The notes: generated from the sequence alone by a model not told the origin. Shown: positions 4,995 to 52,161, counted from the first letter of the stretch. The stretch is DNA of 64,000 nt from Bdellovibrionota bacterium (GCA_040754655.1 JBFMCE010000003.1:3231-67230); one strand, 5' to 3'. A program made the numbers and translations.

Positions 4995-5183
4995 TTTTCT
5001 CCGACGTGATGGATTTAAACAGAAGTACTTTATCATGGGTTTTATTACTTCAAGGATCCCGTTTTAAAAAGCCTTATTTGGGCTCTTTTTTTGGGAGTGT
5101 CGCTCGTTCGTGTGTTCGCGTGGCGGAGAAGTAGGTGATTCGTGGCCTGAAGATTGCTTAGGTTGCGGCAAGAGGTAAAGAAA

Positions 5184-6212
5184 ATGAACGAGTTTCAATC
5201 CAAACTTCATGAACAGGCGTTGGTGGTGGCTAGAACACATCGGGAGGCAGAAGCGGATCTTCTCGACGTCTTGCAAAAGGTTGAACAGCACAAGGTATTC
5301 ATTGCGGTTGGCTGCTCGAGCATGTTCCAGTACTGCGTCCAAATCTTAAGACTGTCTGAGAACACGGCGTTCAATGCCATTACTGTCGCAAGAAAATCCA
5401 AAGAAGTTCCAAGTCTCAAGCAGGAAGTGAAGGCTGGTCGAATTACCCTTTCCAGTGCCAGAAGAGTTACTTCGGTATTAACTCCGAAAAACCAACAGAA
5501 GTGGCTGGGACTTGCCTCGCGCCTTCCACAAAGGGCGCTTGAAAGGGAGATTGCAAAAGAAAACCCAAGAACCGCTACTCGAGAGATGGCGACCTATGTC
5601 TCAGAACACAGATTGGAGTTGAAACTTGGCGTTTCGGAAAAACTTATTGCCGATTTAAGAAGGGTTCAAGACCTCTTGAGTCAAAAGCGCCAGAAGCCCG
5701 TAAGTCTTGAGCAAGCTTTGGAGGCGATGACAGCGCTTTACCTTGAAAGTAACGATCCGGTAAAGAAAGCGGACCGGATTCTTGGGAGGGTTGGCCGGCA
5801 ATCGGATTCTGTAGGAAAGACACCGCAGGTCGCGACGGAGAATCATAAGGTGCCGGCGCAATACGAAGACCAGATCTCGACAACTCAATTCGGCGCACGC
5901 CGAGAATCCCGACAAGTTAGGACAGGTGCTCCAATGTCTTTCATGACTGCGCCGCAAAGGCTAGCCGAGGCTCAACCCGTGCGTCCTAATAGGAGAGCAG
6001 CGATTTTAGCTGGAGTTCGTCATAAGGTCTTTAGGAAGACAAAGGGACAATGCACTTATCGGGACTCCAAAGGAAATCGATGCAATGAGCAGAGGTGGCT
6101 GCATTTTCACCATATCAAACCCGTTTCAGAGGGGGGCGAAAATGTTCAAGAAAATCTCACGCTTCTTTGTAGGAATCACCATGTCTATTTGCATCGGATG
6201 GGAGTGATATAG
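5184..6212 (+). CDS. HNH endonuclease domain protein (DUF222-like N-terminus)
   Basis: C-terminal C..C...HFHHIKPVSEGGENVQENLTLLCRNHH is an HNH motif (H-N-H with CxxC). RBS AAGAGGTAAAG lies upstream of the ATG at 5184. Confidence 0.7.
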   Translation: MNEFQSKLHEQALVVARTHREAEADLLDVLQKVEQHKVFIAVGCSSMFQYCVQILRLSENTAFNAITVARKSKEVPSLKQEVKAGRITLSSARRVTSVLTPKNQQKWLGLASRLPQRALEREIAKENPRTATREMATYVSEHRLELKLGVSEKLIADLRRVQDLLSQKRQKPVSLEQALEAMTALYLESNDPVKKADRILGRVGRQSDSVGKTPQVATENHKVPAQYEDQISTTQFGARRESRQVRTGAPMSFMTAPQRLAEAQPVRPNRRAAILAGVRHKVFRKTKGQCTYRDSKGNRCNEQRWLHFHHIKPVSEGGENVQENLTLLCRNHHVYLHRMGVI

Positions 6213-7889: not shown

Positions 7890-8747
7890 TTAGGCCTCGA
7901 AATAACGCAGCTTCTTTGCCACTGCCTTTTCAGCGTCGCCGAAAGTTTTTTCGCCGGTGCCAAAAGCCCCTTCCATAGCGCGAATGTATTTTGTCAAAAT
8001 CTCAAGTCCACGTGACTCAAGAGAAGCCGCCTGATCACTGCCATACATCGCGCGATCAAGCGTGATGTGTCTTTCGATCGCATCGGCTCCGAGTGCTGCA
8101 GCCAACATAGAGGGCAATACCCCTGCTTCATGGCCACTATAGCCAACAGGGCATTTGTAGCGTTCCCGCAACGAGAGCATCACAGCCACATTGGTTTCAT
8201 TTTCCGCACAAGGGTAAGTCGAGACGGTGTGCATCAAAGTGTATTTGCAGTTTTGTTTTTCAAAAATTTCTACGGCGCGATCAACTTCTGGATAGCCGCA
8301 CATCCCCGTCGAAATAAAAGTATGCTTTTTCTCGGAAGCAACGCGCTCTACAAACTTCCAGTGCGTCAGCATCGCAGAAGCGATCTTGTTATGAGCGCAA
8401 TTGAATTTTTCTAAGAAATCTTGGCTGCCTAAATCCCATGCCGAAGCAAACCAACCGATACCGACCTCTTTGCAATAACGGTCGATTTCTTTGTACTGGT
8501 CTTGATTGAATTCAAGTCCCATCTTTTGTTCACGTTGGGTTGTCCCCCACGGGCTCTCTCTGGTCTGAGAAAGTACTTCTTGCGTGTACACGACGTTGAT
8601 GTCGCGCTTCTGGAACTTCACGTAGTCGCAGCTATTCTTTTTGGCCATATCAATGAGTTGTTTTGCGATCTCCACACTTCCGTTGTGATTGATTCCGATT
8701 TCTGCGATGATGGCGCATTTAGAATTGGGGCGTTTTACAGCAAACAT
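7890..8747 (-). CDS. NeuB-family nonulosonate synthase (PEP-condensing), short form lacking the C-terminal SAF domain
   Basis: IIAEIGINHNGS is the signature NeuB motif; YSGHE metal-site region is present. At 285 aa it ends before the antifreeze-like domain that PseI and LegI in this window carry. Confidence 0.85.
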   Translation of the reverse strand: MFAVKRPNSKCAIIAEIGINHNGSVEIAKQLIDMAKKNSCDYVKFQKRDINVVYTQEVLSQTRESPWGTTQREQKMGLEFNQDQYKEIDRYCKEVGIGWFASAWDLGSQDFLEKFNCAHNKIASAMLTHWKFVERVASEKKHTFISTGMCGYPEVDRAVEIFEKQNCKYTLMHTVSTYPCAENETNVAVMLSLRERYKCPVGYSGHEAGVLPSMLAAALGADAIERHITLDRAMYGSDQAASLESRGLEILTKYIRAMEGAFGTGEKTFGDAEKAVAKKLRYFEA

Positions 8748-8762
8748 GATTCAGGTCCTTTC

Positions 8763-8777
8763 CTAAGAATTTCTTAG
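8763..8777. promoter_or_regulatory. Perfect 7-1-7 palindrome CTAAGAATTTCTTAG in a divergent intergenic region (candidate operator)
   Basis: Read directly from the sequence. Lies between the start of the NeuB-like gene (8747, minus) and the tandem-GT gene (8846, plus). Confidence 0.35.
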
Positions 8778-8845
8778 ACGCTCTAGACAGAGAATCATGC
8801 TACATTTGTGGGCGGATTGCTAATGGAAAGTGTGGCCTAAAGTCA

Positions 8846-10939
8846 ATGGATTCGAGGCGTTTTAGAGTATATCTTACGGGCGGTGACCTGCAAGGCTGGG
8901 CGCTCGACACCGACTTAAAGCTAGCGAAAAAAGCTTTGAGCGGGGTGGTGGATTTTGTCTCAGACCCACACCATGCGGACGTGATCCACACGGTATGGCC
9001 AGAGCAGTTGCTCGAAAAACCCGAACTCGCCGAATTGCGAAAGGGTAAACCGATCGTCGCGACGTTTTCAAATGATCCCCACGCTCTATTTGAAAAGGTG
9101 CCGGGGCTCTATGACGATGCGAGCGAATGGTATTGCGTCGGGCAGTCGCGTGATGCGGTCCGAAAACTCAAAGAGTTGAGCATCCCTTCCGTCGAGTGTG
9201 TTCCTTATATCGCCGACCTCGAGTCTTTTAAACCCCTGCTGAAAGACGATCCAGAACTTTTAGCTTTAAAAGCAGAGCTCAAGATTCCGCGGGACAAGTA
9301 CTTGATCGGGTCGTTTCAGCGAGATTCCTTGGGATCCAACCTTCGCCAGTTCAAGGCTCAAAAGGGTGCCGATGCCTTGTTGTCGATCGCATTGGGGCTG
9401 AAACAGCGCGTCGGCGCTAATGGATTCCATGTCGTTTTAGCTGGTCCTAGGCGGCATTGGATCATGGATGCGTTCGAGAAAAATGCGATCTCTTATTCCT
9501 TCGATGGGGAATTTCTCGGAGGCGATGATTACCCAAAGAACATCCGAAGCGCGGAAAGAATAAATCAGCTGAAGAACCTCTTGGATGTTTATCTGATCAC
9601 AAGCCGTTGGGAAGGCGGACCCCGCGCGGTCTTAGAAGCTGCCGCGAGCAAGACGCCAGTGATCAGCACGGCGGTGGGAGTGGTTCCCGATATTTTGAAT
9701 CCTGTCTGCATCTATAAAAATCTTTCACAGGCGATAGATCTGCTTGAATCTGATTTCAAGAGCCGACACCTTCGTGGTTACGTCGATGAACATTTCGTCA
9801 CGGTAAACAAGAACCATAGCGTCGAAGCTATTCATGGTCTTTGGAAAAACTTTTATGCAAACCTTGGGAGTGAACTTAAGCCTTCCTCAAATCGGGATCA
9901 AATTGACCAGAAAATCCAGGGAAGGGGCGCCAACACCCATTTTTATTTCAAGAAGGCCCTCTTCAAGGCCTCCAAAGTAAAACAGAAACTGATTCAAAAA
10001 ATCCGAAGCCAAAGCTCGCGCAAAGCGACCATCACTCTTTGGGGTGAGATGGTTGCAGGACCTTATGGCGGCGGCAGCCAAGTTTTAAAAGCAATCGCTC
10101 GCGAGCTTGAGTCTCGTGGCTTCGAGGTTTTAAACAATTCTTATACAGATGCCGACGGACACATCCTGAATTCCGCTTTCTTTGACACCGAAAAACTCAA
10201 AACCGTGCTCGGGGCTTCCCAGAAAAAACCTAAAGTCGTGCACCGGATCGATGGTCCGATCTCGCTCTACCGGGGCAAAGATCTTCATCTCGACCAGCAA
10301 ATCTTCAGGTTGAACCGCGAGGCCGCCACTGCAACCGCGTTTCAATGCGTTTACTCGTGGCGTGAGTCGCTCAATATGGGATTTCGACCGGTCAATCCAA
10401 TGATCATCCGAAACGCATGCGACCCGAGCCTGTTTTTTAAGCCAGTTTCGAAGGCTGGGCTAGATGCTTCGCGGAAAGTGAAATTGATCTCTACATGTTG
10501 GTCGACCAACAAGATCAAAGGCTTCGATGTTTACCGACACCTTGATGAGACTCTCGACTTTTCGAAATATGATTACACTTTCGTCGGAAGATCACCGGTT
10601 GAGTTTAAGAACATCCGCCTCGTCGACGCGGTCGCGTCAAAAGAGCTTGGGGATTATTTGAGGCAGGCTGATGTCTTCATAACAGCGAGCCGGAACGATC
10701 CAGCCTCGAATTCATTGCTAGAAGCGCTGAATTGCGGATTGCCTGCGATCTATGCCCAAAGTGGCGGGCATAGCGAATTTACCTGGTTCGCCGGGCTTTC
10801 GTTTCAAGGCCCTCAAGAAATCGCCGGCCTTCTCGAGAGAATCGAACGAGACTATCGGAGCTATCAACTGTCTTGTTACTCCATTTCTATTTCGGAAGCC
10901 GTTGACAGTTATCTACAGGCGTTGGGTTTATGCCGATAA
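8846..10939 (+). CDS. Tandem glycosyltransferase (two GT-B/GT4-like modules in one 697 aa protein)
   Basis: Two GT4 C-terminal EX7E-type regions are present: LITSRWEGGPRAVLEAAASKTPVIST and VFITASRNDPASNSLLEALNCGLPAIYAQSGG. A GT4 N-domain-like GPYGGGSQV...GFEV lies between them. Confidence 0.65.
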   Translation: MDSRRFRVYLTGGDLQGWALDTDLKLAKKALSGVVDFVSDPHHADVIHTVWPEQLLEKPELAELRKGKPIVATFSNDPHALFEKVPGLYDDASEWYCVGQSRDAVRKLKELSIPSVECVPYIADLESFKPLLKDDPELLALKAELKIPRDKYLIGSFQRDSLGSNLRQFKAQKGADALLSIALGLKQRVGANGFHVVLAGPRRHWIMDAFEKNAISYSFDGEFLGGDDYPKNIRSAERINQLKNLLDVYLITSRWEGGPRAVLEAAASKTPVISTAVGVVPDILNPVCIYKNLSQAIDLLESDFKSRHLRGYVDEHFVTVNKNHSVEAIHGLWKNFYANLGSELKPSSNRDQIDQKIQGRGANTHFYFKKALFKASKVKQKLIQKIRSQSSRKATITLWGEMVAGPYGGGSQVLKAIARELESRGFEVLNNSYTDADGHILNSAFFDTEKLKTVLGASQKKPKVVHRIDGPISLYRGKDLHLDQQIFRLNREAATATAFQCVYSWRESLNMGFRPVNPMIIRNACDPSLFFKPVSKAGLDASRKVKLISTCWSTNKIKGFDVYRHLDETLDFSKYDYTFVGRSPVEFKNIRLVDAVASKELGDYLRQADVFITASRNDPASNSLLEALNCGLPAIYAQSGGHSEFTWFAGLSFQGPQEIAGLLERIERDYRSYQLSCYSISISEAVDSYLQALGLCR

Positions 10940-11907
10940 ACGCAAATGAACCTTTTTTCACCATCGTAACCGCGATCAAAGATGGTTTGCTCTTTTTCCG
11001 CGAGACGGCCCCTACGATTTTGAACCAGACGTTTAATGATTGGGAGTGGATCATTGTAGATGATGGTTCCACTGAACCGATCCAAGCCTTTGTTGAGTCG
11101 TGGACTGAATCCCGAGTGCGGTATATCCGCAATGAAACGAGCATTGGGCAAACGCGCAGCTTGAACCTGGGTATTCGAGAGAGCAAGGCGCAGTGGATCG
11201 TGCGCATGGACGCAGACGACCTGGCTGAGCGGGATCGTCTTTCAGAGCTCTATCGGTATTTAACCCAGGTATCACCCCATTACCGGGGCTTGGTTTTTTC
11301 GGATTACCATGTCATCGATCAAGACGGGATGCCTATTGCGACCGTTCGTTATAACGATCAAAAGAGCGACAATCTTCTAGGATACTTGCCGAGAAACAAC
11401 CCGATCTGTCATCCGACCGTGGCGTTCTACAAGACTGGTCCTTCAGGGGGCTTGTATTCTTTCGATGAAACTCTTTTCAACGCCCAAGACTATGCCCTCT
11501 GGAAGAAAATGATTCAAGACTACGGAAATTCGATTCTCCACGTGCCGCTGCCTCTGGTTCATTATCGCTTGGTGAGAGAATCGCTTTCGAGTGCTCGCAT
11601 TAAAGAGCAGCTCCTCGAGCTAGAGTCTATCCGCGCGTCTGGGTCGGGGCCGGGCGCTCAGCGGGAGACGATTTCCGGCGTTAGTCTTTCAAGCTCTAAA
11701 CAAGAAAGCATGCAGGCCTATCGTTCGAGTTATTACAAGTTTATCGGAAATGATCTGCAGAGCGCGAAACTGGGTTGGATAGATCTGAGAGACCTCGTCA
11801 GAACGGTTTTGTATCCTCGTTTTTTTTGGAGGGCGTTTGTTTTCACGATGATGCGGCCATTCCGGGCTAGGCTAAAAAAAATCTTGTTCAACGGGGTCTA
11901 TAAATGA
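10930..11907 (+). CDS. Glycosyltransferase family 2
   Basis: FTIVTAIKDG...IIVDDGSTEP (DXD-type) and RMDADD motifs. Overlaps the upstream gene by 10 nt. Confidence 0.8.
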   Translation: MPINANEPFFTIVTAIKDGLLFFRETAPTILNQTFNDWEWIIVDDGSTEPIQAFVESWTESRVRYIRNETSIGQTRSLNLGIRESKAQWIVRMDADDLAERDRLSELYRYLTQVSPHYRGLVFSDYHVIDQDGMPIATVRYNDQKSDNLLGYLPRNNPICHPTVAFYKTGPSGGLYSFDETLFNAQDYALWKKMIQDYGNSILHVPLPLVHYRLVRESLSSARIKEQLLELESIRASGSGPGAQRETISGVSLSSSKQESMQAYRSSYYKFIGNDLQSAKLGWIDLRDLVRTVLYPRFFWRAFVFTMMRPFRARLKKILFNGVYK

Positions 11908-13490
11908 ACCTCTCGGGCCGAATGCTTCGATCCAAAGACAGGTATACCGCATGGATGGCAGTTTTCTTGATCACGCTTTTCTTCGTGGGAGCACAGCTTT
12001 TCTATATCAAGTTTCGTGCTCCCTACGGTTTTGACGAGGGAGTATTCTGGCAGACCATTCTTTCCCTGGGAGACGGGAGCAAATTGTACTCCGAAATCTT
12101 TTATGCCCAGCTGCCGCTGTTCATCCATTGGGCAAAACTCTTGTTTGATATCGGAGGGCAATCGATCGAGGCTGCCCGTTTGGGCATCGTCATCACCTCG
12201 GCTGTGGCGATACCGGCGATGTATCTCATCGGGAGCCGGCTAGCGGGTGCCCAAACAGGCCTTCTTGCCGCATTTTCGATGGCGATCAACTCCTCGTTTT
12301 TTCACAGTGCTCACGTTCTTGGCGGAAACGCTCCTTCGGTGGCATTTCTCGCTTTGAGTTTTGCATTGCTTTTGGTTGCGATTCCGCGGCCTGAGCGGAT
12401 CGGCAGTCAAAGTGGGCGCGCAATTCGCGCAGAACCCGAGATTCGAGGATTGCCTTTTTTCGGAGCGATGCTTGCGATGAGCATCAGCTTGCAATTCAAG
12501 CTCATCGCGATCGGGGCCCTGCCGGCTGCGTATTATTTGATTTACCATTGCGCGGGTTACCGAAAACGCCCCAACAAAAAAGATTTCTTCTTGCTGCTGC
12601 TCAAAACAACTTTGATTGGCGCTTTACTTGTTTTTGGGGGCGTATTTATTTTCGATCAACAGGGGCTGGTGTTTTCTCAGCTCAATGGAGGAGCGCTTTC
12701 AAAAGACTTAGTGGATAACCATGCTTTGCGACCGGTCTATACTCTGGCGGAAAAGGCCTATATTTTCTTCAGCAATGAATGGTCGTATCATCGCGGGAAC
12801 TTTCTTTTACCCATTGCCTGCCTCGTGCTCTTGTACCAGTCGAGTCGAAGAAAGGTTGAACATGCCGATGCAACGAAGCTTGTTCTTCTTTTCCTGCCAG
12901 TGCTTTCGCTGCCTCTCTTTGTTCATCCGAGGGCATGGCCCCATCATTTTGTGATACTGTCTCCGCTACTTTGCCTGGCATTGGTGATTTTATGGATGTC
13001 TACGCGTGAAACTCGCGCCTTTGGGCCCTTCCCGGGCCGCGTCTTGAATAACCTGGTTCGTGTTTTTTGCTTGGCGTGCGTGGGGTTGGATTTGCTCCTG
13101 ATTTTGCTTCCGATCCCAAAGCTTGAGCCCAGGGCCGAAGAGCTGTTCATCAAACCTTTCAAAGAAGTGACCAGCGCTTTGAAAAATAGCACTCAAAGCG
13201 GTGACTACGTTATTACAGACCACCAATTCATCGCGGCATCATTGGGTTTGCGCATTCCTGCCGCGGTGATTGACACGTCTGGAGTCAGGGTGGGAGCAAG
13301 GTCGTTGACTTGCGCTAAGCTTTTCAAAGAGCTGCTGAGCGGCAAGGTTAGGGCTGTGTTGATCACGAAGCGGCTTAAGCGCATCGATTGTGGCGAGGAA
13401 AATCTTTATCGTGAGGTACAAAGGCATTTCCCGATCCGAGAAGACTTTGGGGTCGGAGCGGTTTTATTCAGTCGGAAGCGATCTTCATGA
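11904..13490 (+). CDS. Polytopic membrane protein, GT-C fold glycosyltransferase (GT39/ArnT-PMT-like), putative
   Basis: About 11 predicted TM helices. The N-terminal periplasmic-loop region FDEGVFWQTILSLGDGSKLYSEIFYAQLPLF resembles the ArnT/PMT family loop that contains the DE motif. Confidence 0.45.
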   Translation: MNLSGRMLRSKDRYTAWMAVFLITLFFVGAQLFYIKFRAPYGFDEGVFWQTILSLGDGSKLYSEIFYAQLPLFIHWAKLLFDIGGQSIEAARLGIVITSAVAIPAMYLIGSRLAGAQTGLLAAFSMAINSSFFHSAHVLGGNAPSVAFLALSFALLLVAIPRPERIGSQSGRAIRAEPEIRGLPFFGAMLAMSISLQFKLIAIGALPAAYYLIYHCAGYRKRPNKKDFFLLLLKTTLIGALLVFGGVFIFDQQGLVFSQLNGGALSKDLVDNHALRPVYTLAEKAYIFFSNEWSYHRGNFLLPIACLVLLYQSSRRKVEHADATKLVLLFLPVLSLPLFVHPRAWPHHFVILSPLLCLALVILWMSTRETRAFGPFPGRVLNNLVRVFCLACVGLDLLLILLPIPKLEPRAEELFIKPFKEVTSALKNSTQSGDYVITDHQFIAASLGLRIPAAVIDTSGVRVGARSLTCAKLFKELLSGKVRAVLITKRLKRIDCGEENLYREVQRHFPIREDFGVGAVLFSRKRSS

Positions 13491-14554
13491 AAAAAATTAA
13501 AATGGTTTTAAGCATCGGACGCCAGTTTCTTGAATTGCTTTTCACCTTGAAGCCCAAAGAGAAATCGCGAACACCCATAAAGGTGCTCGCAAAACCTGCT
13601 TTCTTGGGTGGGCCGGCGACGAAGGTTTCTCAACTGACCGAGATAATGGCGCACCGAAGGCAGCATTATTCCTCGGTCTTTTGTCTTTCGGCGGTTCATA
13701 CGCCGATTTTTCTTTTAAGGATTTTGAAGCTTCTGGGCGCTAAGGTCGTCGTCAATCAAAACGGCGTTTATTATCCCAGTTGGTTCCCTCTCGGATGGGA
13801 GGAAAAGAACGCTTATCTCAGAAGGTTGAACGTGCTTTCTGATCATACTTTTTTTCAAAGCGAGTTCGCATTGCGAAGTTACAAACAGTGGGTTGGCGAT
13901 TTGCCCAAAAACTATTCCATCCTTCATAATCCCGTAGACACGAGAAAGTTTTTGCCACTCGAGGAAGGGGCGCTAAAGAATAATGCGCTTCGAGTCTTGG
14001 TATTCGCGGACGTGTCTGAGTTTACCGAGCCCTTGTGGCAATGCGTAAAGGGACTGCTGCATTACATGGAGTTTCACCCCTTGGAACGCGTCAGCGTTGA
14101 GTGGACTTTGATGGGAAGAATCCTTTCCGGAAAGGTGTTTGATCGCCACCAATTGGGAGAGCTTGATAAGATCGAAAAATTAAAGATAAAGATGGTTTGG
14201 GAACCCGAAGCTCATGTCGTTCCCGAGAGAATCCGAGAGCATGATGTCGCGCTACACCTGGTGTACAATGACGTTTGCCCCAACAAAGTATTGGAGTGCC
14301 TCGCCTCAGGGCTCGGAGTGATCGGCTTGAGCGCCGGAGGAACGGTCGAACTGGTCGGCGACGCGGGAATTACTCTCAACGTCCCTCAAGGCTTCGGGAA
14401 ACCGGCATTCCCGGCTTACTCTGAACTTCGAGAAGCGCTTTCATCCTATTTTGCGCAAAAACAAGAATACCGCCGCAGGGCGGTCCTGCGAGCACAACAG
14501 TTTGATTTGACTTTGTGGCATGAAAAAGTTCGAAAAGAATGCTTACGGTCTTAA
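13487..14554 (+). CDS. Glycosyltransferase group 1 (GT4-like)
   Basis: C-terminal VLECLASGLGVIGLSAGGTVELV matches the GT4 E..E-type motif. ATGA stop/start overlap with the upstream gene. Confidence 0.55.
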   Translation: MKKIKMVLSIGRQFLELLFTLKPKEKSRTPIKVLAKPAFLGGPATKVSQLTEIMAHRRQHYSSVFCLSAVHTPIFLLRILKLLGAKVVVNQNGVYYPSWFPLGWEEKNAYLRRLNVLSDHTFFQSEFALRSYKQWVGDLPKNYSILHNPVDTRKFLPLEEGALKNNALRVLVFADVSEFTEPLWQCVKGLLHYMEFHPLERVSVEWTLMGRILSGKVFDRHQLGELDKIEKLKIKMVWEPEAHVVPERIREHDVALHLVYNDVCPNKVLECLASGLGVIGLSAGGTVELVGDAGITLNVPQGFGKPAFPAYSELREALSSYFAQKQEYRRRAVLRAQQFDLTLWHEKVRKECLRS

Positions 14555-16504
14555 CTTACGCTCCAGATGGCGTGCGATCCTTTCCGCGGATTTTCCATCC
14601 AAAGGCCCGGTGTGCTGGGTGACGTAATTCAACGACATCCGGATTTGCCTCTGGCATCTCTCGCCACCGCTGAGCATTTCTTGAAAGAGATCTACTAGGT
14701 TATCCTCAGGCCCTGCTACGGGAATACCGGCTTCAGAAGCATAGTGCGTTTGTTTTTCAAGCTCTGCCTGAACGTGACGAGGCTGAATGGATACGATCGG
14801 AGTTTGAGAGAGAATGAGCTGGGAGGTGGCGCTGCTGAAGGGAACGATCACGAGATCGCAACCAGAAGCAAGTTCGATGAGATCCGCCGAATGGATGATT
14901 TTGGGCATGCGCGAAACTAGCCTTGCGATCTGTTTTTCGAGTGCGACCGGGTCTTGTTGCGGATGCGCCTTTACGAGAACTTCTGCGTTTAGCGCTGCGG
15001 CTGCCGCTAAACTTGAGCGATAAAACGCGTCAAGGTCGCGCGCGGAATACCACTCATCCGGATAAGTGGCGAGAATCAAAAAGATAGGGGCTTCTTTGTC
15101 GAAATTATAGTGCGCCACAAGTGCATCTTTTTGCACTTGTCGGTTGAGCTTCGACACTTTGTCTACAAGAGGATCTCCTACGACTTCAATTTGATCTGGC
15201 TTACATGCTCTTTCATTCACAAAGCCCGTCGCCAGAAACGAGCCGCTCGTGCCAAAGTGCCTGCTGAGCCTACGCACCAGCCCGATGAAGGGCGAAGGAG
15301 AAAGAAAGGAATACGATACTGTGGGAATCCCTTTTCGTTCAGCTTCAAGCGTGAAGGCCCGGTTGATGTCCCATTCTTCGAAGTGGACGATCAAATCGGG
15401 CGAAAAGTGATCGATGCAGCGTTTTGATGTCTCTGCGTGAAGCGCCGTAACCGGGCTTGCTTCACTGATCATTTCCTCTAGGAATGGCTGTACCAAAGGA
15501 GCAAGCTCAACTCCCTTGTACTGCAAGCTGAAGGCTGCCGTCCGGAAAACAGGCAGAACGCCTTTAATCTTCGCTGAAACCTCTCTCACGATTCGTTTTG
15601 TTTCTTCTCGTGATATGAATCCGGACGCAGCCACGATCTTCACGCCGCGATTTTCGAGCCTGCCAAGAAGGGTGTCTCGCTCTAGGTCTTTGCCTACGAA
15701 GTCAGTTGCCACGATAAACTCTGCATCCAGGGTCTGACCAAAGGTTTCAAGTAACGCCTCTAGACGCCTGAGTGTGCGTTCTTTGTATGCGACGAAGAGA
15801 AGCCGAGGTTTTTCTTTTGCGTGAACGTCTTGGCGCTTGGGTTCGGTTGGAGTGAAGGTGAGCCAGTCTTTAAGCATGTAGTCGTAGTCGATCTTAGGGG
15901 ATGCATCAAGGCCTTGGATGAGTTCCAATAGTTTCGACTCAAGGGAATCCTCGCCAGGAACTTTGATTTCTTTTCTCGGGAGCATTCTTTGGAAGATCAG
16001 TTCTGGTACAGAGTTTCTGGAAAAAGTAAAATATTCCAAGTCTGGTTCTTCGTGAGTCAAGTCCCTGAATGCCTCGACGTAAACGATATAGTTGGCAAGA
16101 ATTTGAAAGGCCCACCTGGGTTCGGAGATTTTGAAGACAGAGCTTCCTCTCCAGGCAAGACCTGATTTTTCGCCAGCCACTTGAGCAAAGGCTTCGAGTT
16201 GGTCGGCGAAGTTGTGCAAAGGAGTGTAGTCGGTTTGATGAATGACTCCGGGTAAAATATCTTGATATTGGCAAAGACCGGTTCGGACGCTTCCCGGCAA
16301 ATTCTCGCTAACGGCCTTGCTAATCAACCCTCGCCAGTGCGCGTTAGGAGCCTGTTTGAAAATGCGGGCTATTTGTCGCTTGATGACGAGGCTCCCAAGC
16401 GCTTTCAACGCCAACCTTGGAACGCGTGCATAACGCCGTCTTCCGATGGGGAAGATATGATTTGCGGTTACAAGAACCGCTTCAATGGCTGGTTGTTTTC
16501 TCAA
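14543..16504 (-). CDS. Large hypothetical GT-B-like protein (Capsule_synth/TagF-like?), paralog group A
   Basis: 653 aa. C-terminal block PIFLILATYPDE...VLVKAHPQQ...VIVPFSSATSQL...GIPV shares a [KR].HP ... S/T-rich ... G.PV pattern with the ORFs at 54285 and 59629. Confidence 0.3.
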   Translation of the reverse strand: MRKQPAIEAVLVTANHIFPIGRRRYARVPRLALKALGSLVIKRQIARIFKQAPNAHWRGLISKAVSENLPGSVRTGLCQYQDILPGVIHQTDYTPLHNFADQLEAFAQVAGEKSGLAWRGSSVFKISEPRWAFQILANYIVYVEAFRDLTHEEPDLEYFTFSRNSVPELIFQRMLPRKEIKVPGEDSLESKLLELIQGLDASPKIDYDYMLKDWLTFTPTEPKRQDVHAKEKPRLLFVAYKERTLRRLEALLETFGQTLDAEFIVATDFVGKDLERDTLLGRLENRGVKIVAASGFISREETKRIVREVSAKIKGVLPVFRTAAFSLQYKGVELAPLVQPFLEEMISEASPVTALHAETSKRCIDHFSPDLIVHFEEWDINRAFTLEAERKGIPTVSYSFLSPSPFIGLVRRLSRHFGTSGSFLATGFVNERACKPDQIEVVGDPLVDKVSKLNRQVQKDALVAHYNFDKEAPIFLILATYPDEWYSARDLDAFYRSSLAAAAALNAEVLVKAHPQQDPVALEKQIARLVSRMPKIIHSADLIELASGCDLVIVPFSSATSQLILSQTPIVSIQPRHVQAELEKQTHYASEAGIPVAGPEDNLVDLFQEMLSGGERCQRQIRMSLNYVTQHTGPLDGKSAERIARHLERKLRP

Positions 16505-18143
16505 AGTCGATCACCTTATCCGCGATTCCGACCAAAGGCTTGTAATGAGTGACGATCACAACCGAGATCTGACCTCGAAGCGCGCTCAATGCGCTAGTCA
16601 CGACCGCGGCCGATTCGCTATCAAGATTGGCCGTAGGTTCATCGAGCAAGAGCGCCGTGGGGCGTCGCAATAACGCGCGGGCCAACGAGAGCCGCTGTTT
16701 TTGCCCGGCAGACAAACCTTCGCCGCGGTCTGAAAGGCGGCGGTTGAGGTCTTCCGGAAAATTGGCCAGAAACTCAAGACAGTGGGCCTTTTCAAGAGCC
16801 GTTTTGAGTTCATCTTGGCTTGGGGCAAAGTCCAGGCCGTACACCAAGTTCTCAAGAATCGTTCCTCCGATGACGTGTGGATCTGGCCCGACGTATCCAA
16901 AGCGGGAATGCGCCTCAACGGCTCCTCTCATGGATTTGTCGCCAGAGTTTGTGCCGATGGTGCCTGCCTTGGGTTCAAGAACGCCTGCCAACAGGTAAAG
17001 CAGCGTGGTTTTGCCAGAACCTGACGCCCCAGTGATGACAGTGATTTCGCCAGGATTCGTTGCTAAGTTGATCCGGTTTAAGATGGGTTTGTTTTCATAA
17101 GAAAACCCGACGTTTTGCAAAGTCCACGAGGTAGGGCGTAGGTTTGACATTGCAGGACTGGTTGGTTGCTTGAGCCTGGGAGGCGCCTGAGTATATTGTC
17201 GTTTCCACCAGTGGATCAACTCGTTCATCTGAGGCGAATACATACGCCAGGATGCGATTGAACTTGAAAGTTCAGCGAGGATCTGCGAAGCGCGGATGAA
17301 AAGATAAATGAACGATACGAATAGACCACCGCCCAGCGCTTGTTGCTCGCGATTGAAATACGAGATGGCAATGATCACGAGCACGCCGATAAATTGAGGC
17401 GCGGAATACTTGCAACTTTTGATGGCCGAGAACAGGCGCGTGTTGAGAAAGAGGCTCTTGAGATCAGCATGGATCTTGGAAAGTTCCCTTTCTTGGGCTC
17501 TGCACACCCTCAGAAACTGCAGGTTCTTCATCGAATCGAGCAACCGCTGGTTGACGGCTGCCGACCTTTCGGTCAGCTCGTTCCCTGAGTTTTTGACGTG
17601 ACGGTCAAGCAGTCTGAGAGCGGCGCCAAAAGCAACCAAAACGCCGATACCCGAGATTGCGAGCACCGGAGCAATCTTCAATAAGTAGATCAGGATCAAG
17701 GTCAATGAGAGCGCATGGATGCTGGTGTTTTGTACGGCGGTGATGCAGTTGGCAGCGCCTGTTACCCGGTCATTGACGTAAGTCACGATCCTCGACGAAT
17801 CGCTATTGCCTGAAAGCAGCGCCCATTCAATGATCCGCGATCGCATGTGATAAGCGAAAGATTCATTGACCATGGCGTGACTGTAGACTTTGAACCACTG
17901 AATCGCGCCCCGGACAAAAGCAAATGCCGCTAAAAACGCGAGGTTGGCGAAAAAAGCCTTGGGCACCCAATCCGGCACATTCGCGACGTTGGGGTCGATC
18001 GTTCCCATTGAAACCAGGAAAGATTGGATGAGCATCGCGAAGCTCACCTCTACCGCGCTCAGCAAGATTCCGGCTATAATGCTGAGTACGAGGATGCGAG
18101 CCACCTTCGGACCAAAAAAATCAAAGAGTCTTGCAGACCGCAA
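16482..18143 (-). CDS. ABC transporter, fused permease/ATP-binding exporter (MsbA/PglK-like)
   Basis: N-terminal 6-TM domain, then Walker A GASGSGKTT, ABC signature LSAGQKQRLSLARAL, and Walker B LLLDEPTANLD. Confidence 0.85.
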   Translation of the reverse strand: MRSARLFDFFGPKVARILVLSIIAGILLSAVEVSFAMLIQSFLVSMGTIDPNVANVPDWVPKAFFANLAFLAAFAFVRGAIQWFKVYSHAMVNESFAYHMRSRIIEWALLSGNSDSSRIVTYVNDRVTGAANCITAVQNTSIHALSLTLILIYLLKIAPVLAISGIGVLVAFGAALRLLDRHVKNSGNELTERSAAVNQRLLDSMKNLQFLRVCRAQERELSKIHADLKSLFLNTRLFSAIKSCKYSAPQFIGVLVIIAISYFNREQQALGGGLFVSFIYLFIRASQILAELSSSIASWRMYSPQMNELIHWWKRQYTQAPPRLKQPTSPAMSNLRPTSWTLQNVGFSYENKPILNRINLATNPGEITVITGASGSGKTTLLYLLAGVLEPKAGTIGTNSGDKSMRGAVEAHSRFGYVGPDPHVIGGTILENLVYGLDFAPSQDELKTALEKAHCLEFLANFPEDLNRRLSDRGEGLSAGQKQRLSLARALLRRPTALLLDEPTANLDSESAAVVTSALSALRGQISVVIVTHYKPLVGIADKVIDFEKTTSH

Positions 18144-18759
18144 AGATCTCTCCTTCGCTATTGTAAAAAGAGGTTTGCACGACGAAGCCCGCTTTTTCGA
18201 CCTCGCTGTGAAGCATGCTCAAAGTGTATTCGCGACAGTGCGTCGGATCCGTCCTCGCATCAAGACCAAGGCTTTGTTTGAACTGAAACCGCCAGTTCTC
18301 TTGAGAAGGTACGCAAATGAGCAATTTCCTGAATGTGGTGAGCCTTTTTAAAAAAGCGATCGGGTCCGGCAAATGCTCAAGCACGTGGCTCAAGAGAATC
18401 GTGTTCACGCCCTGCTGGGTAAGCAAAGGGATGAGATTTTGGTCAAGGATATCCATCCTGATGAAATTCGTTTGATCCTTGAGCAAAAGCGCTGGACTCA
18501 GATCCACGCCGACGGCGGACGCTACTTTTGGGCTGACCGCAAGGACGAGTTTTCCGGTGCCGCACCCGAGGTCGGCCACCCGATCGGTCTTATCGACCCA
18601 ATTTACGAAATCCCTCGAGCGAAAGTCATGCAAGTTCTTGGGATGAGGCATGCGCAAGAGCTTGCAGAGATGATAGAAAAAACGCGATTCAATGAAATCG
18701 TGCACGAAGAAGTAAAACCGGAACAGAATTTTATAAAGGCGCTCGCGATCTTCGGTCAT
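18121..18759 (-). CDS. Class I SAM-dependent methyltransferase
   Basis: VADLGCGTGKL SAM-binding motif I and the acidic post-I residue VGVDLS. Confidence 0.65.
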   Translation of the reverse strand: MTEDRERLYKILFRFYFFVHDFIESRFFYHLCKLLRMPHPKNLHDFRSRDFVNWVDKTDRVADLGCGTGKLVLAVSPKVASAVGVDLSPALLLKDQTNFIRMDILDQNLIPLLTQQGVNTILLSHVLEHLPDPIAFLKRLTTFRKLLICVPSQENWRFQFKQSLGLDARTDPTHCREYTLSMLHSEVEKAGFVVQTSFYNSEGEIFAVCKTL

Positions 18760-18761
18760 GT

Positions 18762-20036
18762 CTAGTGCACCACATTGGGGCTCGAGGGAAAAATCCCTTT
18801 GATGTCGAGCAAGAAACCCTTGGGATCGATGATCTGATCCAAGCCTTCATCCAGCTGTTTTAAGATCGGCGCATGGGGAACCGCAAGGACTGCCGCCGTA
18901 TACTTCTTCTGGGGGATCCCATCGAGAAGTTCCAAGCCGTATTCCTTTCGGGCAAGTTCGCGGTCTGCTATCGGATCCGCCACATCCACTTTGATGCCAT
19001 ACTTCTGAAGCGCTCGTACAAGATCAACGACCTTTGTGTTCCTGACATCAGGGCAATTTTCCTTGAAAGTGAAGCCCAAGACTAAAACTTCTGATCCAAT
19101 CGGCGAAACCTTGCGTTCGAGCAATTTGCGCAAAAGTTTTTCCGCGAAAAACTCCGGCATCGAATCATTGGTACGGCGGCCTGCGAGGATCATCTCCGGG
19201 TGATAACCCACTTCAAGCGATTTGTGAGTGAGGTAATAAGGATCCACCCCGATGCAATGGCCGCCGACAAGCCCGGGTTTGAATTTCAAGAAATTCCACT
19301 TGGTGCCGGAAGCTTCGAGCACCTCATGCACGTCAAGACCCAAGCGGTCAAACAGAACCGTGAGTTCATTGATCAAGCCGATGTTCACATCACGTTGAAT
19401 GTTTTCAATGACCTTCGCCGCTTCAGCGGTGCGGATGTCTTTTGCGCAGTGAATTCCAGCAGCGACGATCTTTGAATACATCCCAGCAACGAGTTCGAGC
19501 GTCTTTTGATTCGAGCCCGATACGATCTTCTTGATCTTGGGTATCGTGTGTTCTTTGTCACCGGGATTGACGCGCTCTGGACTGTATCCCAAGAAAAAGT
19601 CCACATTGAGTTTTAGCCCCGTCAGTTCTTCTAGTTTTGGGGCCAAGACCTCTTCAGTCAAGCCCGGGTAAACCGTCGATTCAAATACGACCGTCGCTCC
19701 TTTTTGAAGCACTTCGCTTAAGATTTCACATGCGGAAAAAAGAGGGGTCAAGTCCGGTGCATTGTACTTGTCGACCGGCGTTGGAACCGTGACGATGAAA
19801 AAGTTCAAGCCCTTGAGATCGTTCTTCTTGCTTGTGAACAGAAGATTTGGCGAGCCAAGCTCCGTCGCGGGTACTTCGTTTGTTCGGTCAATTCCGGCGC
19901 TGAGTTCTTGAATACGCGTTGGGTTGCGATCATAGGCTCTCACTTTCATGACTTTGCTAAAGCAGACCGCTAAGGGCAGACCTACGTATCCAACTCCAAC
20001 AATTCCGATTTCTCGAGGAAGGTCGATGACCGCCAT
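18762..20036 (-). CDS. Nucleotide-sugar dehydrogenase (UDP-GlcNAc/UDP-ManNAc/UDP-Glc 6-dehydrogenase family; WbpA/TviB/WecC-like)
   Basis: IGIVGVGYVGLPLA NAD-binding motif; 424 aa; catalytic Cys region GGHCIGVDPYY. Confidence 0.85.
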   Translation of the reverse strand: MAVIDLPREIGIVGVGYVGLPLAVCFSKVMKVRAYDRNPTRIQELSAGIDRTNEVPATELGSPNLLFTSKKNDLKGLNFFIVTVPTPVDKYNAPDLTPLFSACEILSEVLQKGATVVFESTVYPGLTEEVLAPKLEELTGLKLNVDFFLGYSPERVNPGDKEHTIPKIKKIVSGSNQKTLELVAGMYSKIVAAGIHCAKDIRTAEAAKVIENIQRDVNIGLINELTVLFDRLGLDVHEVLEASGTKWNFLKFKPGLVGGHCIGVDPYYLTHKSLEVGYHPEMILAGRRTNDSMPEFFAEKLLRKLLERKVSPIGSEVLVLGFTFKENCPDVRNTKVVDLVRALQKYGIKVDVADPIADRELARKEYGLELLDGIPQKKYTAAVLAVPHAPILKQLDEGLDQIIDPKGFLLDIKGIFPSSPNVVH

Positions 20037-20218: not shown

Positions 20219-21703
20219 ATGTCGGAGACTCCTGTAACGACGACGATTACGACAAAGCCGATGGAGAGTTTAAAGACCACTTCCGTGACCAGCTCTTGGA
20301 AGTGGAGAGGATACTTAGGGCGCGTTTTGACGGTCTCTCAGCTCATCACGGATTTCACCACGGTAGTTGCTTGTTATATGGCGAGCTATTGGATTTACGT
20401 GGGGCCCCTGCGCGGCTGGTCACCACAGACGATGCCCGAGTTTCTGGCGCTTTCGTTTTCGGCGGCTTTGCTTTACGCGGTTTTGCTTGAACGTGAAGGT
20501 CTTTATCGTCGTGAAATGAGCCTTTTGAACGTGAAAGAATTGAGGGGCCTTTTTCACGTGGGGATTTATGCGGCCGCCCTGATTTTGAGCGTCTCTTTCT
20601 ACATTCGATCGATCAGCTTGTCGCGCGTGACTCTTACGATAGCGCTTATCCTTACGCCGGTGATTTTGTACCTGCAGCGCCAGTTTTTTTATTGGCTCCA
20701 TGTGAGGTTGCACAGCCAGGGGCTCGCTCAGCGCCGAGTGCTGATTTACGGCGCCGGCAATATCGGAACACATCTTGCGAAGAGGCTCTTTCAGAGCCCG
20801 TCACTAGGATTGTTTCCCGTGGGGTTTCTTGACGATGATGCCTCAAGGCATGGGAGCATTTTAAAGTGGAAAGGTTCTTGCCCACGCGCTGGAGTGAAGG
20901 TTTTAGGAGGTGAAGAGACACTCAAGTCCTGGAAGAACCTGGGCGTTGAGTTGGTCTTGATCGCCATTCCTTCAGCTAGCTTTGAACGGAACAGGAAACT
21001 TGTTGAGCTCTGCGTGGAAGAAGGCCTTGAATACGCCATCGTTCCGAACGCCTATGAGAAGTTCATCCAAAGGGTTGAGGGAGTCGAGATCGGGGGCATT
21101 CCTCTGATTCGCCGTAGGTCGCGCAAAACGAGCTTGATTTATTTGGCGATGAAGCGGCTCCTCGATTTTACCTTGAGCGTCGTTTTTTTGGCTTTGCTCT
21201 CGCCACTGGTATTCTTCATTGGGCTCGCCATAAAACTTGATTCAAAGGGACCCATCGTTTTCAAGCAGAAGCGTGTCGGACAAAACGGAAAAGAATTCAC
21301 CGTCTATAAGTTTCGCAGCATGTACACCGAAGCTCCGAAGTACGCGCACACCCCGGCTGATCCCTCTGACCCGCGCATCACTAAGGTGGGTCGTTGGCTA
21401 CGACGCACAAGCCTTGACGAGCTTCCTCAATTGTTCAATGTCTTCCGTGGCGATATGAGCATCGTAGGCCCGCGTCCTGAGATGCCGTTCATTGTAGAGA
21501 ACTATGGGCCCTTAGAGCGCCTTCGGCTTGAGTGCAAACCTGGCATTACGGGTGTCTGGCAAATCAGTGCGGTGCGCGGTGAACCCATTCACGCGAATAT
21601 CGAATACGACTTGTTCTACCTCGAGAACCGATCAGTGCTTTTGGACGTCGCGATTATTATCAAAACAATCCTCTCTGTGATACGAGGAGTAGGAGCCGTT
21701 TAA
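20219..21703 (+). CDS. Polyprenyl-phosphate sugar phosphotransferase (WbaP/PssY-type bacterial sugar transferase, initiating enzyme)
   Basis: N-terminal TM helices, CoA-binding-like YGAGNIGTHLAK, and the C-terminal Bac_transf signature KFRSMY...DELPQLFNVFRGDMSIVGPRP. Confidence 0.85.
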   Translation: MSETPVTTTITTKPMESLKTTSVTSSWKWRGYLGRVLTVSQLITDFTTVVACYMASYWIYVGPLRGWSPQTMPEFLALSFSAALLYAVLLEREGLYRREMSLLNVKELRGLFHVGIYAAALILSVSFYIRSISLSRVTLTIALILTPVILYLQRQFFYWLHVRLHSQGLAQRRVLIYGAGNIGTHLAKRLFQSPSLGLFPVGFLDDDASRHGSILKWKGSCPRAGVKVLGGEETLKSWKNLGVELVLIAIPSASFERNRKLVELCVEEGLEYAIVPNAYEKFIQRVEGVEIGGIPLIRRRSRKTSLIYLAMKRLLDFTLSVVFLALLSPLVFFIGLAIKLDSKGPIVFKQKRVGQNGKEFTVYKFRSMYTEAPKYAHTPADPSDPRITKVGRWLRRTSLDELPQLFNVFRGDMSIVGPRPEMPFIVENYGPLERLRLECKPGITGVWQISAVRGEPIHANIEYDLFYLENRSVLLDVAIIIKTILSVIRGVGAV

Positions 21704-24498: not shown

Positions 24499-25692
24499 AT
24501 GCGTTTGATTTTCAAACAGCCTGATGTGCTGTTTTTTCTGGCGATTTTTTCGTTATCTGCGGCAATCATACTCGGTTTTCCCCAAGACATCCGATTTGAC
24601 CAGCAGCTCATCCGTTACGTCTTTTCATTCAAAGACTTTCCCTCGTTCGATGATGGCGTCATCTCTCATTTGATTGCGGGTTTTTACAATCGATTCGTTG
24701 CTCCCAGTGCCGAGAGTTTGAACCAACATTTCCGCTTTTTAGCAATGACCGGTTTTTTGACCTCTGCGTTTTTGCTCTGCAGGTTGGTCGTTCGTGATTG
24801 GCGCTTGCGCTGCATCTTCTTGGCGTTTTTAATGCTGTCACGTTTGCCGTTTTTATGGCTCAGTACCGAGCTTTTCACCGCGACGGCGTTTTGTGTGGCT
24901 TTGATTGGAATGCTCGAAAACTGGAAACCTCATTGGCTTGCACTGGCGCTGGTTATGCTGGCCAACACGAAGCCCGATCTGATCTTGGTTGCCACGGCGC
25001 TTTTGGGATACGCGGTTTTCTTTGAACCTTCGCATAAGAGGCAGCGCTTGAGATTGGTCTCGTGTTTTATAGGGTTTGAGGTCTTGCTTTGGATCCCTGG
25101 TTTTATCGCGAATGGGAATCAGTTTTTCGGAAACCGGGGCTTCATGGCTTTTGCCCAGCACTATTCTGATTTGGTTTATCCCCATCAGGCCGCCGCTCAG
25201 GCGGCCGATCCGTGGTTGCAACCCGAAAAGTACATGGAGCGGATTTTTCCAAAAGCGCAATCGATACGGGATCTGGTCTTGCATTACCCGGTGAAGTATT
25301 TTGATTTTCTGACCCTCTCCCTTGGAAAGGGTTTTAAGAACCTGATCCGGCTCTTTGGCTTCTTGGCTTTGCTCTTCCCGATGCGCATCGCCTTTTTGAA
25401 TAGGATGCCATTGACCCGTTTCGAGAAAATCGTGGGGATTACGCTCGTGGGTTTTGTTCCGTTCTTTTTGCTCTCGTACCCTCACGTGAGGTATATGACG
25501 AGGTATTACCCGGCTTTTGTGATTCTTTTGGCGGCATGGACGGAGAGATTGCCCGATCCAAAGAAAGGCAAAACCCATATCAAGAGATATGCTTATGCTA
25601 CGATGGCAATGGCGTTGGCCTTCCAAGCCTTTTTGTTCTTCCGCGACCTGCATGCCTTGAGCTTTGGCGGTTACTTTTGGTTTCCGGATTGA
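24499..25692 (+). CDS. Polytopic integral membrane protein (GT-C or Wzy-like), function unknown
   Basis: 397 aa with about 10 hydrophobic helices. Its position after a DPM1-like GT2 suggests a GtrC-like lipid-sugar-utilising transferase. Confidence 0.4.
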   Translation: MRLIFKQPDVLFFLAIFSLSAAIILGFPQDIRFDQQLIRYVFSFKDFPSFDDGVISHLIAGFYNRFVAPSAESLNQHFRFLAMTGFLTSAFLLCRLVVRDWRLRCIFLAFLMLSRLPFLWLSTELFTATAFCVALIGMLENWKPHWLALALVMLANTKPDLILVATALLGYAVFFEPSHKRQRLRLVSCFIGFEVLLWIPGFIANGNQFFGNRGFMAFAQHYSDLVYPHQAAAQAADPWLQPEKYMERIFPKAQSIRDLVLHYPVKYFDFLTLSLGKGFKNLIRLFGFLALLFPMRIAFLNRMPLTRFEKIVGITLVGFVPFFLLSYPHVRYMTRYYPAFVILLAAWTERLPDPKKGKTHIKRYAYATMAMALAFQAFLFFRDLHALSFGGYFWFPD

Positions 25693-32023: not shown

Positions 32024-32142
32024 TTCTTTGAAACACTCCGTATGGGCGAAATTAAATCAAATGAGGTTAAAACACAAAAGCTAAAGACAGGCGCCGGGAT
32101 AAGCCATTGAAGAAGCAAAATGTTTCATGCATAAACAGGGAA

Positions 32143-51338: not shown

Positions 51339-51344
51339 CGAGAG

Positions 51345-52157: not shown

Positions 52158-52161
52158 AGCC

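Follow-up and report, generated by a model that had tools for sequence, protein, structure and literature searches.

Introduction

In Campylobacter jejuni, lipid-linked oligosaccharides are flipped by PglK, a case related to that of Wzk in Helicobacter pylori. Wzk is a fused ATP-binding cassette (ABC) flippase that replaces Wzx in H. pylori and feeds WaaL (PMC2841628), while S-layer glycan systems use a WbaP homologue, an ABC transporter (Wzm/Wzt) and a Wzy_C transferase (PMC2943079). Here, we describe a fused ABC exporter encoded at positions 16482-18143 of a stretch of 64,000 nucleotides from a Bdellovibrionota metagenome-assembled genome (MAG); this whole stretch is called the window below. 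The exporter gene adjoins the gene of a 653-aa soluble orphan protein, and both lie in a locus with a WbaP-type initiating enzyme and a Wzy_C-domain protein. In our favored reading, to which we give a probability of about one half, the exporter and the 653-aa protein are a make-and-flip pair for a lipid-linked glycan that has been recruited into the WbaP locus. A further point of comparison is the BFO_1060 family, which comprises pseudaminic/legionaminic-acid transferases of Tannerella forsythia with a common HP motif (PMC5420450).

Materials and methods

The window covers 64,000 of the 67,634 bases of its MAG contig, and 3.6 kb lie outside it. From its open reading frames (ORFs) of at least 100 aa, 59 non-nested ones were chosen, and all of these were scanned with Pfam. 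Those left unassigned were rescanned up to an E-value of 10, and key ORFs were also compared with NCBIfam. Gene contexts were looked up for two further orthologues of the exporter, namely on a Bacteriovoracia MAG stretch (L001, which is the same as L006) and on a short Logan contig (L011), and for five relatives of the Wzy_C-domain protein (L004, L005, L007, L008 and L009). The GC content of the window is about 0.50 and even throughout, an Rfam scan of the window returned no family, and promoter and terminator scans around the exporter operon gave counts at chance level. Beyond the exporter, the content of the window is overwhelmingly glycan metabolism, with many glycosyltransferases and methyltransferases among the Pfam and NCBIfam assignments.

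Results

A fused ABC exporter with a conserved partner

The exporter (16482-18143, minus strand; 553 aa) is a half-transporter of the type-IV, or ABCB-like, architecture, in which an N-terminal transmembrane domain (TMD) of six helices is fused to a nucleotide-binding domain (NBD). Residues 17-263 match the Pfam family ABC_membrane just at the threshold (28.3 bits, cutoff 28), and residues 355-505 match ABC_tran with 99.5 bits. NCBI annotates an identical 553-aa product. The motifs of the NBD are intact, with Walker A at residues 372-379, the signature LSAGQ at 477-481, LLLDE of Walker B at 498-502 and the H-loop histidine at His533. A preliminary description of this DNA had named a half-size TMD-NBD exporter at these positions as the only transporter in the window, and we confirm this: the gene is intact, and no other exporter family was recognized in the 59 ORFs.

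The exporter reaches the cutoff of no named NCBIfam family. The models for CydD, type I secretion, HepA, MsbA and glucan exporters score 130-195 bits against cutoffs of 435-1000, including 154.9 bits for MsbA (TIGR02203, cutoff 602) and 168 bits for HepA (NF045513, cutoff 725). When compared with solved structures, the full-length protein matches ABCB-type exporters, and these matches are driven by the NBD. The TMD alone (residues 1-322) finds chains of PCAT1-type bacteriocin exporters as its best matches, at an E-value of about 2e-3. Judged by these comparisons, the membrane domain is very divergent. True orthologues are rare as well, with four in the protein collection at 47-52% identity, and no close relative was found in the plasmid collection.

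The exporter belongs to a same-strand run whose genes overlap or abut one another and which is divergent from the operon of the WbaP-type enzyme. The first gene of the run encodes a protein of the UDP-sugar 6-dehydrogenase (UGD) family (18762-20036, minus strand), with three UDPG_MGDP_dh domains in Pfam and 65% identity to the product of a gene beside the Wzy_C homologue in L005. It is followed by an S-adenosylmethionine-dependent methyltransferase gene (18121-18759, minus strand; Methyltransf_23 and related models) directly upstream of the exporter gene, which it overlaps by 23 nt. The gene of the 653-aa protein (14543-16504, minus strand) in turn overlaps the stop of the exporter gene by 23 nt, so that overlaps on both sides tie the methyltransferase, exporter and 653-aa genes together.

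What is conserved of this run is the pair of exporter and 653-aa protein. As in the window, an exporter orthologue (50-52% identity) is directly followed by a homologue of the 653-aa protein in L001 and L011, the two other contexts, and the homologue in L001 aligns over its full length at 30% identity (E-value 2e-90). The methyltransferase does not belong to this conserved pair in either L001 or L011. Judging from these contexts, the 653-aa protein is what the exporter gene is coupled to in evolution, rather than the phosphoglycosyl transferase or the Wzy_C protein.

The family of the 653-aa protein is very small, with three relatives in all from the searches of protein, genome and metagenome collections. 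The genome collection holds one, identical to that of L001, and the metagenome collection holds one more, L010; a word-index search returned only the protein itself. It has no Pfam domain, even in the rescan to an E-value of 10, and searches of solved structures with its sequence or with a profile gave no relative. Its conserved C-terminal half contains the GT-B-like motifs VVGDPLVD and KAHPQQ, and the D/E-D/E-G motif is absent from the protein. Our best guess is a glycosyltransferase, possibly one for nonulosonates.

Two further observations concern the surroundings of this family. In L010, an insert of about 1 kb that resembles a toxin-antitoxin system (in the region 8700-9950) lies upstream of the 653-aa homologue, where the exporter gene would sit. 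Direct repeats about 80-115 nt long and 91-93% identical border it on both sides. We also considered a conserved triad of ABC exporter, GT-B and GT-C proteins. It was rejected, since the convergently encoded membrane proteins of L001 (DUF2079) and L010 and the PMT_2 protein of the window are not homologous; the PMT_2 protein also stands one gene further from the pair than do its counterparts in L001 and L010.

The initiating enzyme and the Wzy_C protein

The WbaP-type polyprenyl-phosphate hexose-1-phosphate transferase (20219-21703, plus strand), which is the initiating enzyme, is encoded divergently from the exporter run. It matches Bac_transf with 222 bits and TIGR03025 with 385 bits, above the cutoff of 296, and is 65% identical to its counterpart in L005. 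The Wzy_C-domain membrane protein (29445-30860, minus strand; 471 aa) scores 59.5 bits for Wzy_C against a cutoff of 31.7 and is the only protein of this kind in the window; its start at 30860 agrees with the 471-aa product of NCBI. Both genes had been assigned in this way in the preliminary description, and the model scores bear this out.

The Wzy_C protein combines its domain with a WaaL fold. The helix list of the structural model gives twelve helices and a periplasmic loop of about 100 aa (residues 266-369) before transmembrane helix (TM) 10. The family, of which the protein collection holds only 22 relatives, has the invariant residues R218, R312, H368 (in SGPHNSYL) and E438, with R218, R312 and H368 present in all of 19 sequences. 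The same topology of twelve helices, loop and Arg-His residues occurs in O-oligosaccharyltransferases (O-OTases) and in some polymerases, and therefore does not single out WaaL. The Wzy_C domain is likewise common to O-OTases, and ligases and O-OTases can be separated by experiment only (PMC3369928).

The sequence models do not decide between ligase, O-OTase and polymerase. For the Wzy_C protein and its relatives, NCBIfam returned sub-threshold and conflicting matches, with no significant match to an O-OTase model, so that the comparison with PglL/PilO, WaaL and Wzy models proposed in the preliminary description gives no consistent answer. One relative matches TfpM at an E-value of 0.018. Among solved chains, the family profile finds 9rmk_A, an ‘oligosaccharyltransferase’, far from significance (E-value 1.8, best domain 0.086). 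The protein ends at residue 471, right after its last helix (440-466), and has no extra C-terminal region of the periplasmic or tetratricopeptide repeat (TPR) type such as PglL and WsfB carry (PMC2943079). As for linkage, Pfam found neither a Glyco_transf_9 nor a 3-deoxy-D-manno-octulosonic acid (Kdo) transferase gene in the window, which would have tied a WaaL ligase to genes of the lipopolysaccharide (LPS) core. Neither the Wzx nor the Wzz or other polysaccharide co-polymerase expected beside a Wzy polymerase is in the window either.

The relatives of the Wzy_C protein share a recognizable neighborhood. A GT4 glycosyltransferase gene (30857-32023, minus strand) is a recurrent neighbor of the family, with homologues beside the Wzy_C homologue in four of the five relatives (L004, L005, L008 and L009). 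L005 keeps the phosphoglycosyl transferase (65%), the GT4 enzyme (71%) and the dehydrogenase (65%), while its Wzy_C protein is only 33% identical; there is no ABC exporter or Wzx within 10 kb of this core of phosphoglycosyl transferase, GT4, Wzy_C and UGD genes. L007 also has no flippase within 10 kb. In L008 and L009, the Wzy_C relative lies about 5 kb from a Wzx gene and a second Wzy_C paralogue, and the Wzy_C family is thus not tied to ABC flipping. One of the five relatives (L009) adjoins a Glyco_transf_9 gene of the heptosyltransferase family.

Second, sequence-distinct Wzy_C paralogues are found in L008 (12062-13414), L009 (13544-14902) and L004 (7491-8792). In L008 and L009, the second paralogue is two genes from Wzx, with a GT4 gene between them, and is missed by our family profile (A1). 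This arrangement suggests a division of labor between a ligase and a polymerase, which the window lacks. The neighborhoods point in two directions: the second paralogue beside Wzx and the GT9 neighbor suggest that the window-type Wzy_C protein would be the ligase, and its strong divergence beside conserved initiating enzymes would suit a polymerase.

Search for other flippases and membrane glycosyltransferases

No domain of the Wzx (multidrug/oligosaccharidyl-lipid/polysaccharide exporter), Wzz, Poly_export, Wza, Wzc or ABC-2 type was found in the 59 ORFs by Pfam, including the rescan, in agreement with the absence of Wzx, Wzz and Wza/Wzc reported in the preliminary description. The same holds for domains of the Polysacc_synt, MurJ and MatE type. 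The gene at 16482-18143 thus encodes the only recognizable exporter in 64 kb. Neither a peptidase domain nor a precursor peptide or membrane-fusion protein turned up in the Pfam scans of the window.

Two membrane proteins of no assigned family were considered as possible flippases. The first (32107-33543, plus strand; 478 aa) has no Pfam or NCBIfam match, and of 1.8 billion cluster representatives just 20 are related to it. Its AlphaFold model (mean confidence, or pLDDT, 86.9) finds ALG12, STT3, ArnT and DPY19 in Foldseek at a probability of 1.0 with TM-scores of 0.5-0.56. Multidrug and toxic compound extrusion (MATE) and major facilitator superfamily (MFS) transporters reach a probability of at most 0.2, which is noise level, and the protein was rejected as a flippase; by its predicted structure it is a GT-C glycosyltransferase. 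The second (24499-25692, plus strand; 397 aa), in the WbaP operon, is a polytopic membrane protein with about 8-11 helices by hydropathy. It has no match in Pfam or NCBIfam to an E-value of 10, to the GT-C profile A3 or in plasmids. With one helix, an acidic loop of 50 residues, a helix cluster and a loop of 70 residues, its layout seems to us closer to that of a GT-C enzyme or a polymerase than to the 12 helices of Wzx. A divergent polymerase, a GT-C enzyme and a flippase are its candidate roles.

Another membrane glycosyltransferase of the GT-C type (11904-13490, plus strand) matches PMT_2 with 34.4 bits and has about eight hydrophobic segments; its operon is convergent with the exporter run. 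Besides the window, L004, L005 and L009 also have PMT_2-like GT-C genes. The product of 36345-37415 (plus strand) combines a GT2 enzyme with a membrane domain of the GtrA type in one chain (Glycos_transf_2 and GtrA_DPMS_TM, with matches to AglJ and PpgS-like proteins), and is probably a polyprenyl-phosphate-sugar synthase that feeds GT-C enzymes. Given the PMT_2 and GT2-GtrA genes, periplasmic glycosylation from single-sugar lipid donors appears to be part of the locus.

Upstream of the GT2-GtrA gene, ORF 35497-36348 (plus strand) encodes a polysaccharide deacetylase with DUF3473 that resembles the deacetylase of the XrtA system (TIGR03006, 192 bits against a cutoff of 276). This resemblance led us to consider an exosortase (PEP-CTERM) system, which we dropped because the window has no exosortase gene.

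Nonulosonate genes and other features of the window

The window is rich in genes for nonulosonic acids. There are three NeuB paralogues (7890-8747, 49666-50715 and 61202-62281), three cytidine monophosphate (CMP) transferase genes (1202-1921, 46013-48055 and 57665-58363), two sets of WbuX/HisH/HisF-like amidotransferase genes (42921-45456 and 50712-53283) and a PseG gene (48052-49122), along with PseB-like and PseC-like genes. From these genes, the number of different nonulosonic acids would be two or three, and some would carry an acetamidino modification. In ORF 46013-48055, a cytidylyltransferase is fused to a class-III aminotransferase.

Amid these genes are two orphan soluble proteins with HP motifs, one of 535 aa (54285-55892, plus strand) and one of 552 aa (59629-61287, minus strand). 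They are weakly alike at the C-terminus (E-value 7e-4) and are candidate nonulosonate transferases. Profile comparisons of the 653-aa protein with the two were not significant. The same region holds a single-TM protein that resembles AsmA/GspN (58315-59661, plus strand). Elsewhere, ORF 5154-6212 (plus strand), which has an HNH endonuclease domain at its C-terminus, lies beside a single-TM ORF of no assigned family (4341-5036), and the two may be the remnant of a mobile element.

Discussion

A proposed make-and-flip pair

From its motifs, the product of 16482-18143 is predicted to be a working homodimer-type ABC exporter. With the overlapping gene of the 653-aa protein, which would be cytoplasmic and GT-B-like, it would form a two-gene module that makes and flips a lipid-linked glycan or glycolipid. 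In this genome, the module would have come to lie within a WbaP-initiated locus for an envelope glycan, where the genes of a UDP-sugar dehydrogenase and a methyltransferase precede it on the same strand. The exporter is the sole one in 64 kb and hence the most likely route by which the undecaprenyl-linked glycan of the WbaP locus would reach the periplasmic face, and its substrate is probably a lipid-linked glycan. There, the glycan would be acted on by the Wzy_C protein with its WaaL fold and by two or more GT-C enzymes, the latter probably supplied by the GT2-GtrA polyprenyl-phosphate-sugar synthase. This reading is further favored by a more distant exporter relative (35% identity) in the glycan locus of L004, a locus with a pair of Wzy_C genes in which no Wzx was called over the 21 kb that were read. 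It is also favored by the weak match of the 653-aa protein to the BFO_1060 family model NF046086 (E-value 7e-4), by the sub-threshold match of its homologue in L001 to TIGR04326, a family of the Leptospira O-antigen locus, and by the nonulosonate genes of the window.

The hand-over of the exported product to the Wzy_C protein is a more tentative step, for which we would give odds clearly short of even. The preliminary description had proposed an ABC-dependent flip followed by transfer through the Wzy_C protein; an intact and sole exporter within a run of glycan genes agrees with this proposal, but the conserved partner of the exporter is the 653-aa protein and not the Wzy_C protein.

A number of observations weigh against the make-and-flip pair. 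The exporter lacks the canonical glutamine of the Q-loop and has GYVGPDP instead (residues 414-424); G419 and P420 are invariant in all 19 sampled relatives, down to 30% identity, so that the whole subfamily appears to be without it. With the PglK model NF050066, whose cutoff is 1000 bits, the exporter reaches 111 bits over the NBD only (residues 338-549), and the TMD alone finds no PglK or MsbA chain among solved structures at an E-value of 1 or below. By sequence, the exporter is thus akin to PglK, Wzk and MsbA in its NBD only, and the ‘MsbA/PglK type’ of the preliminary description holds for the domain architecture but not for descent. A relative at 35% identity adjoins non-ribosomal peptide synthetase and polyketide synthase (NRPS/PKS) genes in L002, so the wider exporter family is not specific to glycans. 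The pair in L001 and L011 adjoins a Na/Ca exchanger gene, outside WbaP/Wzy_C loci, and the 653-aa homologue in L010 has no adjacent ABC gene. The family matches of the 653-aa protein lie far below the cutoffs, as with the 18.9 bits against 200 for NF046086. Finally, the survey of flippases spans the window only, and the rest of the MAG genome may encode a Wzx.

Alternative explanations

Some of these observations would be expected if the exporter and the 653-aa protein formed an autonomous pair with a product of its own, such as a separate glycolipid or periplasmic glycan, and if the WbaP/Wzy_C pathway used a Wzx, and perhaps a Wzz, encoded elsewhere. The two modules are separable in relatives, which supports this explanation: L001 has the pair without WbaP or Wzy_C within 10 kb, L011 has it beside the same Na/Ca exchanger gene, and L005 has the WbaP/Wzy_C core without an exporter, with a 653-aa homologue from the same metagenome and of the same GC content on another contig. 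The Wzx genes near the Wzy_C relatives of L008 and L009 fit it too, as do the flippase-free 10-kb surroundings, including those of L007, which imply that flippases are often unlinked in this lineage. However, the exporter run, divergent from the WbaP gene, is headed by a UGD gene of the kind that adjoins Wzy_C in L005, and a Wzx-dependent locus would rarely be expected to span 64 kb without a Wzx. We regard an autonomous pair as the main rival explanation, though a less likely one than the make-and-flip pair in the WbaP pathway. Quite another role for the ABC protein, as an exporter of peptides, lipids or small molecules that is in the locus by chance, would account for the bacteriocin exporters as the best TMD match, for CydD and type I secretion exporters among the top NCBIfam scores and for the relative beside NRPS/PKS genes. 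It sits badly with the tight translational overlaps with glycan-type genes on both sides, with the GT-B-like features of the conserved partner and with the lack of a peptidase domain, precursor peptide or membrane-fusion protein in the window, and we consider it unlikely.

A third explanation retains the ABC flip and concerns the fate of the glycan. The Wzy_C protein would be an O-OTase like PglL/PilO that transfers the glycan en bloc to proteins, yielding nonulosonate-rich O-glycoproteins. The domain is shared with O-OTases, 9rmk_A is the profile's only match, however far from significant, among solved chains of the membrane-glycosyltransferase type, and there is the faint TfpM match of one relative. 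In addition, PMT_2-type GT-C genes recur nearby, and genes of the Pse/Leg type are abundant in the window. Yet no O-OTase model matches significantly, and the protein stops just past TM12 without a C-terminal periplasmic or TPR-type domain, a feature that is not universal among O-OTases. The heptosyltransferase-family gene beside the L009 relative is typical of LPS core loci, and the low identity of the L005 Wzy_C protein (33%, against 65-71% for its neighbors) fits a glycan-specific ligase or polymerase better than an O-OTase of relaxed specificity. On balance, an O-OTase is improbable. The chances are slimmer still that everything holds jointly, i.e. that a nonulosonate-transferase-like GT-B enzyme caps the WbaP-initiated glycan, the Q-less ABC exporter flips it in place of Wzx, and the WaaL-fold enzyme transfers it en bloc to proteins, as a general system of nonulosonate-rich O-glycosylation in Bdellovibrionota.

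Whichever explanation is preferred, the absence of Wzx from a locus is weak evidence in this lineage, since the same Wzy_C/GT4 core has a Wzx nearby in some related loci, an ABC exporter in others and neither of the two in still others. If the exporter does flip the WbaP-initiated glycan, this would provide a function for the orphan family of the 653-aa protein.

Comparison with known systems

A close parallel to the proposed pathway is that of Wzk and WaaL in H. pylori (PMC2841628). Both have a fused TMD-NBD exporter in Wzx's stead and an en bloc transferase with the Wzy_C/WaaL fold, and neither involves Wzx, Wzy or Wzz. H. pylori, however, has scattered genes and initiates with WecA where the window has an enzyme of the WbaP type. 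Unlike Wzk, which is clearly homologous to PglK, the window exporter matches the PglK model in the NBD only, and a fixed 653-aa partner gene is a feature of the window exporter and not of Wzk. With PglK of C. jejuni, the exporter shares the half-transporter architecture and a glycan locus without Wzx. It differs in its NBD-only match (111 bits against 1000), in a TMD that does not find PglK, and in the absence of a PglB-type N-oligosaccharyltransferase from the window.

The S-layer systems of Geobacillus stearothermophilus and Paenibacillus alvei (WsaP, Wzm/Wzt and WsaB; PMC2943079) resemble the window in their WbaP-type initiator, ABC export, Wzy_C transferase and methyltransferase in the cluster. 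Their own features are the two-component ABC-2 transporter Wzm/Wzt, Gram-positive hosts and an acceptor protein encoded in or near the cluster. MsbA, HepA and NdvA, which export lipid A, heterocyst polysaccharide and cyclic glucan, respectively, have the same architecture as the window exporter, which can be aligned to their models over its full length; at 155-168 bits against cutoffs of 602-725, however, it is a member of none of these equivalogs.

For the 653-aa protein, the nearest comparison is with Tanf_01245/BFO_1060 of T. forsythia (PMC5420450), whose conserved C-terminal domain it matches weakly; it also has an HP motif, and its locus in the window is rich in nonulosonate genes. Unlike these transferases, it scores 18.9 bits where 200 are required, lacks the D/E-D/E-G motif and is about twice as long, and T. 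forsythia uses Wzx.

That a fused ABC flippase can take the place of Wzx is already established, and as an annotation hypothesis the case of the window is plausible but not surprising. As far as sequence comparison can tell, it is set apart from the known flippase systems by an exporter without sequence kinship to theirs, an initiator of the WbaP type and an orphan gene as fixed partner. If the exporter does flip the WbaP-initiated glycan, fused ABC flippases in the role of Wzx would gain a third lineage after PglK and Wzk, unrelated to these in sequence, and this in a predatory phylum that has been little studied.

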